From: Mobula hypostoma
Taxonomy: Eukaryota
Assembly: GCF_963921235.1 (NCBI RefSeq)
Contig: NC_086107.1
Coordinates: 113,958,001 to 114,022,000 of the forward strand
Reading direction: 5' to 3'
DNA: 64,000 bases
The position numbers and the translations under genes are program-made. Shown here piece after piece: positions 2,712 through 7,568 of the stretch (within the stretch, counting starts at the first letter, position 1; each line of letters opens with the position of its first letter). A model generated the notes under the pieces. It did no database searches, had not been told where the DNA came from, and was given only the letters and a program-made list of their open reading frames with translations.

Positions 2712-5700
2712 TTGGGGGGTGGGAATCAAATTAAAGAGGCTAGGCGAGAGGAGGTTAGTTCACAACAGGGGGATGGGAACCAGTGCAGAGAGACAGAGGG
2801 GTGTAAAGTGAGGGTAGAAGCAAAAAGTACTAAGGAGAAAAGTAAAAGTGGCAGGCCGACAAATCCAGGGCAAGCATTAAAAAGGGCCACTTTTCAACAT
2901 AATTGTATAAGGGCTAAGAGAGTTGTAAAAGAGCGCCTGAAGGCTTTGTGTGTCAATGCAAGGAGCATTCGTAACAAGGTGGATGAATTGAAAGTGCAGA
3001 TTGTTATTAATGATTATGATATAGTTGGGATCACAGAGACATGGCTCCAGGGTGACCAAGGATGGGAGCTCAACATTCAGGGATATTCAATATTCAGGAG
3101 GGATAGACATGAAGGAAGGGGAGGTGGGGTGGCGTTGCTGGTTAAAGATGAGATTAACGCAATAGAAAGGAAGGACATAAGCCGGGAAGATGTGGAATCG
3201 ATATGGGTAGAGCTGCATAACACTAAGGGGCAGAAAACGCTGGTGGGAGTTGTGTACAGGCCACCTAACAGTAGTAGTGAGGTCAGTGATGGTATTAAAC
3301 AGGAAATTAGAAATGTGTGCAATAAAGGAACAGCAGTTATAATGGGTGACTTCAATCTACATGTAGATTTGGTGAACCAAATTGGTAAAGGTGCTGAGGA
3401 AGAAGATTTCTTGGAATGTATGCGGGATGGTTTTTTGAACCAACATGTCGAGGAACCAACTAGAGAGCAGGCTATTCTAGACTGGGTTTTGAGCAATGAG
3501 GAAGGGTTAATTATCAATCTTGTCGTGAGAGGCCCCTTGGGTAAGAGTGACCATAATATGGTGGAATTCTTCATTAAGATGGAGAGTGACATAGTTAATT
3601 CAGAAACAAAGGTTCTGAACTTAAAGAGGGGTAACTTTGAAGGTATGAGACGTGAATTAGCTAAGATAGACTGGCAAATGACACTTAAAGGATTGACGGT
3701 GGATATGCAATGGCAAGCATTTAAAGATTGCATGGATGAACTACAACAATTGTTCATCCCAGTTTGGCAAAAGAATAAATCAAGGAAGGTAGTGCACCCG
3801 TGGCTGACAAGAGAAATTAGGGATAGTATCAATTCCAAAGGAGAAGCATACAAATTAGCCAGAAAAAGTGGCTCACCTGAGGACTGGGAGAAATTCAGAG
3901 TTCAGCAGAGGAGGACAAAGGGCTTAATTAGGAAGGGGAAAAAAGATTATGCGAGAAAACTGGCAGGGAACATAAAAACTGACTGTAAAAGCTTTTATAG
4001 ATATGTAAAAAGGAAAAGACTGGTAAAGACAAATGTAGGTCCCCTACAGACAGAAACAGGTGAATTGATTATGGGGAGCAAGGACATGGCAGACCAATTG
4101 AATAATTACTTTGGTTCTGTCTTCACTAAGGAGGACATAAATAATCTTCCAGAAATAGTAGGAGACAGAGGGTCCAGTGAGATGGAGGAACTGAGCGAAA
4201 TACATGTTAGTAGGGAAGTGGTGTTAGGTAAATTGAAGGGATTAAAGGCAGATAAATCCCCAGGGCCAGATGGTCTGCATCCCAGAGTGCTTAAGGAAAT
4301 AGCCCAAGAAATAGTGGATGCATTAGTGATAATTTTTCAAAACTTGTTAAATTCTGGACTAGTTCCTGAGGATTGGAGGGTGGCTGATGTAACCCCACTT
4401 TTTAAAAAAGGAGGGAGAGAGAAACCGGGGAATTATAGACCGGTTAGCCTAATGTCGGTGGTGGGGAAACTGCTGGAGTCAGTTATCAAAGATGTGATAA
4501 CAGCACATTTGGAAAGCGGTGAAATCATCGGACAAAGTCAGCATGGATTTGTGAAAGGAAAATCATGTCTGACGAATCTCATGGAATTTTTTGAGGATGT
4601 AACTAGTAGAGTGGATAGGGGAGAACCAGTGGATGTGGTGTATTTGGATTTTCAAAAGGCTTTTGACAAGGTCCCACACAGGAGATTAGTGTGCAAACTT
4701 AAAGCACATGATATTGGGGGTAAGGTATTGATGTGGATAGAGAATTGGTTAGCAGACAGGAAGCAAAGAGTGGGAATAAACGGGACCTTTTCAGAATGGC
4801 AGGCAGTGACTAGTGGGGTACCGCAAGGCTCAGTGCTAGGACCCCAGTTGTTTACAATATATATTAATGACTTGGATGAGGGAATTAAATGCAGCATCTC
4901 CAAGTTTGCGGATGACACGAAGCTGGGCGGCAGTGTTAGCTGTGAGGAAGATGCTAAGACGATGCAGGGTGACTTGGATAGGTTGGGTGAGTGGGCAAAT
5001 TCATGGTGGATGCAATTTAATGTGGATAAATGTGAAGTTATCCACTTTGGTGGCAAAAATAGGAAAACAGAGGCTCCATCTTCCTCTCACCCCAACCCTC
5101 CCCTCTCCACTGACACCCCCAGCCTCCCCCCTCCCCCCTCTGATCCCAGCTCTCAAGATTCCAGCCTTGAACTCCAGGCCGGGTCTTTATGTGCTGCTGT
5201 TGTGACTCCCGTCTCCCCTTCCCCCACCACCACTCCGCAGCCCCGTCTTCCTCAGATCCCACCGTCAGCTCCTGGGCCCTCAGAGGCTCCATCTTCCTCT
5301 CACCCCAACCCTCCCCTCTCCATTGACACCCCCAGCCTCCCCCCTCCCCCCTCTGATCCCAGCTCTCATCCGTGCCGGGTCTTTACCATCCCCTCCGACC
5401 TTCAACTGTCGGAGGCAGAACGCTCTGTTCTCAGTAAGGGCCTCACGTTTGTCCCCCTTCGCCCACACCTCAGTGAGTTCCGTGTTCGCCATGATGCGGA
5501 ACTTTTCTTCCGCCGTCTCCGTCTCCGAGCCTACTTCTTCGGCAAGGACTCTTCCACCCCCACCGATGACCCCTTCTCCTGTCTTCAACCCTCCTCTTCT
5601 TCATGGACACCCCGCTCTGGTCTTCTGCCTGCTCTGGATCTCTTTATTGCCAACTGCCGACGAGACATCAACCGTCTCGACTTCACCGCACCTTGTCCCC

Positions 5701-7568: not shown

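Follow-up and report, generated by a model that had tools for sequence, protein, structure and literature searches.

We analysed a 64,000-nt window of Mobula hypostoma DNA (contig NC_086107.1, positions 113,958,001 to 114,022,000 of the forward strand) in which a Penelope retroelement lies inside a long interspersed element (LINE) that we label a CR1 and that has P0001, P0002 and Xenopus reverse transcriptase (RT) entries among its homologs. All coordinates are positions in this window, and all parts of the locus are on the + strand. The locus is built of three layers: an old CR1, a young 5'-truncated CR1 (2379-8761) and a young 5'-truncated Penelope. A stop-free frame at 2691-7568 (+), 1,625 codons long with a stop only at its end, runs in order through the CR1 endonuclease, the CR1 RT core, a Pro/Ser stretch, the Penelope RT and a GIY-YIG endonuclease. 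A first-pass annotation had called this frame a chimera with two RTs and two endonucleases, a title that is right as a description of the sequence and wrong as that of an active element.

The homolog sets comprised 120 listed proteins (from 150 that came out of a scoring of 8,000 candidates), 49 long proteins, and the best 150 of 233,112. Contigs of four runs were placed on 1800-9600: X1 (DNA, organism A), X5 (DNA, organism B), and X9 and X11 (putative RNA, organism A); their summed depth is not a copy number. The parts of the locus are listed below (ORF, open reading frame; UTR, untranslated region; pLTR, pseudo-long terminal repeat).

1593..2378 (+): older decayed CR1 ORF2 fragment, 5' side of the host of the young CR1 (tblastn, P0001 residues 203-421 to 1611-2251, 31-33% identity, two frames, E 2e-26)
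2373..2378 (left) and 8762..8767 (right) (+): 6-nt target duplication TTTACC around the young CR1 (read from the sequence)
2379..2706 (+): young CR1 ORF1 3' remnant, SGNH/GDSL esterase (Pfam Lipase_GDSL_2, E 3e-12 on 2371-2703)
2697..2706 (+): candidate -1 frameshift site T TTA AAC, then the ORF1 stop TAG, with ORF2 in the -1 frame (downstream fold weak, no stimulatory structure shown)
2691..5071 (+): N-terminal 793 codons of the young CR1 ORF2, APE at ~2994-3563 and RT core at ~4413-5057 (Pfam; matched by 75 of the 120 listed homologs, best 64% identity)
5068..5071 (+): 5'-junction microhomology CAGA, present in both the CR1 target and the Penelope template (88-nt repeat 5068-5155 / 5281-5368, 99% identical; empty-site joint)
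5072..5368 (+): Pro/Ser-rich Penelope N-terminal linker with the 5' truncation point, made of the end of a 213-nt unit (to 5155) and one whole unit, 5156-5368 (repeat; P0199)
5369..7568 (+): Penelope ORF with RT (YIDD 6501), Cys-rich linker, GIY-YIG 7272-7496 and stop 7566-7568 (matched by 45 of the 120 listed homologs, best 53% identity over nearly full length; Pfam)
7569..7995 (+): Penelope 3' UTR, pLTR-like repeat and tail, family 3' end 7995 (contigs exiting at 7995/7996)
7861..7898 (+): putative minimal type-I hammerhead motif (by-eye reading against the description in the retrieved part of PMC4209133)
7994..8666 (+): C-terminal 223 codons of the young CR1 ORF2, which the Penelope stop and UTR separate from the RT core (matched by 75 of the 75 listed CR1-type homologs)
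8667..8761 (+): CR1 3' UTR and short-repeat tail, family 3' end ~8760 (35 X5 contigs exit at 8760 into unlike flanks)

Motifs and Pfam matches confirm that the annotated domains share one stop-free frame. The APE motifs NARS (2955), ITETW (3030), GDFN (3345) and SDH (3546) span 2955-3554, the CR1 FADD lies at 4905, the Penelope YIDD is followed by FPD at 6627, and the GIY-YIG motifs GVIY (7272) and YIGET (7314) span 7272-7328. Pfam on the frame returns Exo_endo_phos (E 3e-11), RVT_1 in 2 stretches (E 9e-40) and GIY-YIG at E 5e-4 and 20.9 bits, slightly below the curated cut-off of 22.6; for the Penelope part, RVT_1 and GIY-YIG are both weak and below cut-off. A PDB search matched the CR1 part to L1 ORF2p and R2 and gave no match for the Penelope part. 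The base skew of the region turns from G-rich to C-rich near 5 kb and back near 8 kb.

The outer element has the features of a CR1-type LINE, namely an APE-RT ORF2, an esterase ORF1, a fixed 3' end with a short-repeat tail, and 5' truncation. The truncation falls at ~2379, inside the esterase domain, and leaves only a C-terminal remnant of it. X1 summed contig depth goes up ~150-fold from bin 2061-2321 to bin 2322-2582, and the old CR1 reading, judged by eye, picks up again past the right TTTACC copy. All 75 of the 75 listed CR1-type homologs match both CR1 pieces, and in 61 of them the two matches are contiguous to within 0-1 residue. The first in-frame AUG of ORF2 is at 3342, within the endonuclease, and one ORF1-frame AUG is left after truncation, at 2518. 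The candidate -1 slippery site at the end of ORF1 suggests that ORF2 is normally dependent on ORF1 translation.

Contigs from the CR1 tail into the right flank were found in X1 (8735-9083, 0 differences) and X5 (8734-9049, 4 differences). The latter is a hint that the outer CR1 is common to organism B; this contig holds just 28 tail letters, fewer than the 31-letter rule asks, and is silent on Penelope. The X1 contig, at a depth of 10.9 where the next contig has 26.5, may mark a heterozygous site. Elsewhere in the window lie older CR1-like fragments with 66-71% identity to the locus, at 1-600, 26983-27366, 37990-38451, 42697-43238, 53852-55063, 60054-61328 and 63613-63996.

The inner Penelope copy and its junctions

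Removal of 5072-7993 in silico (2,922 nt, 974 codons) gives a 1,018-codon CR1 frame reading RKT-D-YYLNG. The corresponding empty-site joint, 5071-7994, is present in all four runs, in 13, 9, 2 and 3 contigs, so other CR1 copies have no duplication or loss at this site. Both the scripted removal and these contigs bear out the earlier claim that the deletion restores the CR1 exactly. The inner Penelope insert thus shows neither target duplication nor target loss.

At the 5' junction, CAGA can be recognised as shared with the target because a second copy of the same Penelope stretch occurs at 5281; together with the joint 5071-7994, this supports the proposed microhomology without a target-site duplication. 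The 3' junction has a 2-nt overlap, TT. Contigs exiting the element into unlike flanks number 42 at 7995 (X1) and 8 at 7996 (X9), with an agreement of 0.47-0.49, so the Penelope copy has its whole 3' end, and the TT is common to copy and target. Its target reads A/TT, and the family end lies ~122 nt beyond the start of the hammerhead stem II. The window sequence contains no N. None of the 32 contig pieces listed (325,701 lie beyond these) spans the inner junctions at 5071/5072 and 7993/7994, which is evidence in neither direction.

The inner copy has several features of endonuclease-bearing (EN+) Penelope elements: a single ORF with RT and C-terminal GIY-YIG (an architecture also seen in homologs that span nearly all of it, at up to 53% identity), a putative hammerhead in the terminal repeat, and a tail end at an AT-rich target. 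A complete Penelope N-terminal region and a 5' pLTR, which an active copy would require, are not present in this copy. The hammerhead would consist of stem I (7861-7865/7894-7898), a core (7866-7872), stem II (7873-7875/7883-7885) and GAAA (7886-7889), with a predicted cut after 7893. Rfam on 7500-8100 found no hammerhead and gave 4 matches, all far under the gathering score. No second Penelope-family copy was found within the window.

The Pro/Ser N-terminal region of the Penelope carries a 213-nt (71-codon) in-frame tandem unit. P0199 matches this unit at 79% and then continues upstream with different sequence. Contigs have loose ends at 5160, and 12 X1 contigs run upstream with other sequence and without the tandem unit. 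An X11 contig at 5106-5218 (3 differences) places the tandem unit in at least one other Penelope copy. The unit, which other family members are without, is therefore a subfamily marker.

Condition and age of the fused frame

Both halves of the fused frame are probably non-functional, since the CR1 5' end, its last 223 residues and the Penelope N-terminus are gone and both halves carry private changes. The CR1 RT is broken off where the Pfam core ends, 55 residues past FADD, and the last 223 residues stand behind the Penelope stop. The lost C-terminal residues would include the thumb, as in L1 structures. Also absent from this copy is the CR1 5' end, where a LINE promoter is expected. In 45 of the 45 listed Penelope homologs, 162-585 residues precede the part kept here; this copy keeps ~100 N-terminal residues, which are low-complexity.

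Private changes were scored against 40 homologs per part, at columns conserved in at least 90% of homologs. The CR1 part has 5 such changes, against a median of 1 in the homologs, of which 1 of 40 reaches that count; the Penelope part has 4 (median 2; 9 of 40 as high). The FPD replaces a leucine that is found in 97% of the 40 homologs and in P0176, the closest relative retrieved. At 964, 1262, 1314 and 1614 the closest relatives retrieved differ from this copy and carry arginine, glycine, leucine and proline, respectively. L1598 was rejected as a private lesion: it is odd against distant homologs, but common to P0176. The caveats that accompanied the first-pass annotation (a CR1 5'-truncated in ORF1, an RT without its C-terminal region, FLD reading FPD) all proved correct.

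Eight copy-specific sites fall in the frame where the family letter makes up at least 90% of X1 depth, 5 non-synonymous and 3 synonymous, taken from 27 rows used of 28 listed among 46 X1 rows. On these few sites, and with both enzymes incomplete, the frame does not look like a functional two-RT, two-endonuclease protein under purifying selection. In X9 and X11 the flank bin 8847-9107 has depth 0, which was not counted as evidence on expression. At the copy-specific CR1 sites 3370, 4163, 4453, 4711, 4838, 4960 and 8266, all X9/X11 contig depth has the family letter; this too was not counted. Contigs lose rare variants, these two runs are only presumed to be RNA, and the samples are not the same.

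The CR1 and Penelope families are plainly both very abundant, with an X1 summed depth of 3e5-4e6 across both repeats versus 11-27 on the flank contigs. X1 has at least 46 places with other letters across 7.8 kb, which puts both copies within ~1% of their families. At a divergence below 1% the open frame is explicable without selection: in simulations with 20, 30 and 50 substitutions placed at random, it remained open with a probability of 0.54, 0.39 and 0.21, respectively. A match in both orientation (1 in 2) and phase (1 in 3) has odds of 1 in 6. An illustrative expectation is 0.3 to 25 open fusions per genome on assumed inputs (2,000-30,000 Penelope copies reaching the N-terminal region, young CR1 ORF2 at 0.2-1% of the genome, half of it open). 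Dating of the Penelope against the CR1 was attempted from the listed majority differences (CR1, 19 over 3,460 nt; Penelope, 3 over 2,924 nt), and rejected. Such majority differences are unfit as a clock, because 28 of the 46 X1 rows are listed and several known private sites are missing from them.

The fusion was also sought among known proteins. We retrieved 312 distinct proteins. The LINE parts are matched by 103 of them and the Penelope part by 210, with 1 matching both (P0286); none of the 312 has the fusion layout of this locus. The 49 long proteins include none with APE Pfam families, and many of them are host gene models carrying a Penelope piece. P0286 (819 aa) resembles the locus in that a CR1-like piece is joined in frame to a Penelope ORF. 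It differs in having only 75 CR1 residues (1-75), no endonuclease or RT core, and another junction. Its join may be a gene-model artefact or real nesting, and it suggests that CR1-Penelope joins arise independently.

A metagenome scan with a 23-nt CR1 word beside the right junction gave 0 matches; as even this plain CR1 word is unmatched, the collection is without the family. A literature search by title and start of abstract, with few subscription journals and without Repbase or supplements, found no CR1-Penelope in-frame fusion. The combination of 'two reverse transcriptase', non-LTR, chimeric and endonuclease likewise matched nothing there.

Origin of the nested frame

The frame, the two junctions, the family end of each element, the outer duplication and the missing domains are all observed, and we read them as, very probably, the result of a chance in-frame nested insertion of a young Penelope into a young CR1, with the fused frame as a decaying by-product. 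A recent chance insertion in frame was also what the first-pass annotation favoured, and it is backed by the anatomy, by contigs with the empty site, by decay in both halves and by published precedent. Both pieces keep their normal 3' ends, at 7995 for Penelope and 8760 for CR1 by contig exits. The inner element resembles a normal Penelope insertion and shares the anatomy of the rotifer Pen2_Av case described below.

By parsimony, the CR1 would have been at the locus first and the Penelope second. The young CR1 inserted into the older CR1 with a 5' truncation inside ORF1 and a 6-nt duplication, both visible in the sequence. At an ATT word shortly past the RT core, Penelope would then have nicked the CR1 DNA. 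Reverse transcription would have proceeded from the usual Penelope tail end and halted in the Pro/Ser N-terminal region, and the product may have been joined to the target via the 4-nt microhomology without duplication. The ends of these last steps are seen at the locus, and their enzymology, including the use of Penelope's own enzymes, is what we infer from work on the anole Poseidon element. Orientation and phase would have matched by luck, and both copies would be too young for a stop to have arisen.

Several points weigh against this reading. The 6-nt duplication encloses the whole composite, which would fit insertion as a unit equally well, and the CR1 tail is intact. The Penelope private-change count is inside the homolog range and, with 9 of 40 as high, is not unusual. 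The 5:3 ratio comes from 8 sites only, from 28 of 46 X1 rows listed. Finally, the blank in the search for the fusion is weak evidence, since few vertebrate repeats of this lineage are represented in the collections (64% and 53% are the best identities over full length).

The intact tail and the duplication round the whole 6.4-kb block are also what a composite moved as a unit would show. Here the Penelope would have entered a full-length transcribed CR1 elsewhere, and an intact CR1 ORF2 protein would have copied the composite RNA, which still ended in the CR1 tail, in trans, so that it landed here 5'-truncated. Such a composite would be non-autonomous, would exist in at least 2 copies, and would not require a working fused protein. 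In the retrieved passages, stringent LINE proteins recognise their cognate 3' tail, as shown for L2-clade LINEs (PMC4176376), and CR1-clade LINEs are prominent as SINE (short interspersed element) partners (PMC3747384).

We nevertheless consider this route improbable. It demands extra steps and a 6.4-kb cDNA, and the duplication and mobilising tail, which do enclose the whole unit, are equally expected from nesting and do not discriminate. The earlier suggestion that the composite could be mobilised through the CR1 tail finds no support at this locus, which has no promoter-bearing 5' end, no matching fusion among the 312 proteins, and a sense hammerhead motif between the frame and the tail. 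As a weaker point, no look-alike of the junction region was found among 209 windows of this genome. The hammerhead would be no firm barrier, since minimal hammerheads of Penelope-like elements (PLEs) cut poorly alone according to the parts of PMC4209133 and PMC11167929 retrieved. The anole hammerhead, as described in the latter, needs a protein for cutting and shows no cut in RNA-seq, so the motif may not stop read-through. It is similarly improbable that the CR1-Penelope-CR1 block belongs, as a single copy, to a small composite family, with transcription from a full-length parent, trans copying via the CR1 tail, and a near-complete Penelope ORF extending the CR1 ORF2 in frame. If true, two retroelement classes would travel, and perhaps be translated, as one unit.

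An assembly artefact, in which a 4-nt overlap led to a false join between reads of two high-copy repeats, would agree with the lack of a listed contig over 5071/5072 or 7993/7994. We regard it as highly improbable, given that the CR1 is restored exactly across two reciprocal junctions and that the Penelope piece stops at the terminus of its family, both of which together are beyond one mis-join, that the window has no N, and that the X1 outer CR1-flank contig has 0 differences. A one-step chimera, in which the CR1 RT switched from CR1 RNA to Penelope RNA and back within a single insertion, could account for the short overlaps of 4 nt and 2 nt at the two ends and for the lack of duplication at the inner insert, but deserves hardly any credence, as it needs two switches, must resume CR1 at the exact base, and meets an inner 3' end that is the Penelope terminus in an ATT word, as Penelope enzymes predict. 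The same very low standing applies to a selected fusion protein, working or domesticated and translated from AUG 2518 via the -1 site or from AUG 3342: the 1,625 stop-free codons, the intact FADD, YIDD and YIG, the candidate slippery site and the one remaining ORF1-frame AUG speak for it, against an open frame that chance would be expected to leave in copies of this age, conserved columns with private changes in each half, and the missing CR1 C-terminus and Penelope N-terminus.

As chance nesting, the fusion itself matters little. The locus is a clean vertebrate example of Penelope insertion anatomy, with a tail end, an ATT target, 5' microhomology and no duplication. It is also a warning that abundant young repeat families yield long multi-domain frames by chance. 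If the junction were multi-copy, it would mark the birth of a cross-class retroelement composite, and LINE-Penelope domain shuffling would become directly testable.

Neighbourhood and known systems

Beyond the locus, the window holds a 47-bp minisatellite at 610-1401 (15.7 copies, 95% matches) that ends in a short inverted piece (1342-1401), and related arrays lie near 25160, 30804, 32693 and 34901. Two perforin-1-like genes (+), each with one long frame, were found at 45728-47512, with MACPF and C2, and at 15812-17359, with MACPF and a frame ending without C2. On the - strand, other LINE-like RT frames are represented by 3' fragments at 28910-29911 and 37388-38020; judged by eye, these do not resemble the CR1 family.

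Compared with known systems, the outer element is like CR1-clade LINEs in its esterase ORF1, APE-RT ORF2, short-repeat tail and 5' truncation. It differs in that its ORF2 is broken after the RT core, with 223 C-terminal residues behind the Penelope stop. SVA is a composite non-autonomous retrotransposon and Dualen a two-endonuclease LINE, and both are multi-copy families. The locus is like them in that one unit combines pieces of unrelated elements, or one ORF holds two nucleases, and it is known from one site.

The inner element is close in layout to the Poseidon element PAc of Anolis carolinensis, a likeness of motifs and anatomy and not one drawn from a tree. According to the retrieved part of PMC11167929, the PAc endonuclease prefers ATT, and reverse transcription starts 111-118 nt past the start of stem II. 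Both elements would have an RT with a C-terminal GIY-YIG, a hammerhead in the terminal repeat, a 3' end ~120 nt past where stem II begins and an ATT target. The same source describes a full-length PAc whose N-terminal helix, at residues 27-173, is predicted to make the dimer, whereas the copy at this locus is without its N-terminus. The putative hammerhead agrees with the minimal hammerheads described in the retrieved part of PMC4209133 in its core, its stems I and II, its lack of helix III and its terminal-repeat location. It is single, with no tandem partner within 4900-8900, unlike the tandem PLE hammerheads of that source; a dimeric active form would therefore be unavailable in cis.

The closest precedent for the insertion itself is Pen2_Av of the rotifer Adineta vaga, where the retrieved passages of PMC3846280 describe a 5'-truncated Penelope copy in a non-LTR element, with no target-site duplication and with 5' microhomology. 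These passages hold nothing on an in-frame fusion with a LINE ORF. The two cases share a Penelope inside a LINE, the absence of duplication, a microhomology 5' junction and truncation. Pen2_Av, as described there, is a partial tandem of a full-length and a truncated copy, whereas the present locus has a single truncated copy, in sense and in frame. In conclusion, Penelope insertion into a LINE with microhomology and without duplication is already known from the rotifer, and the locus is another case of it.

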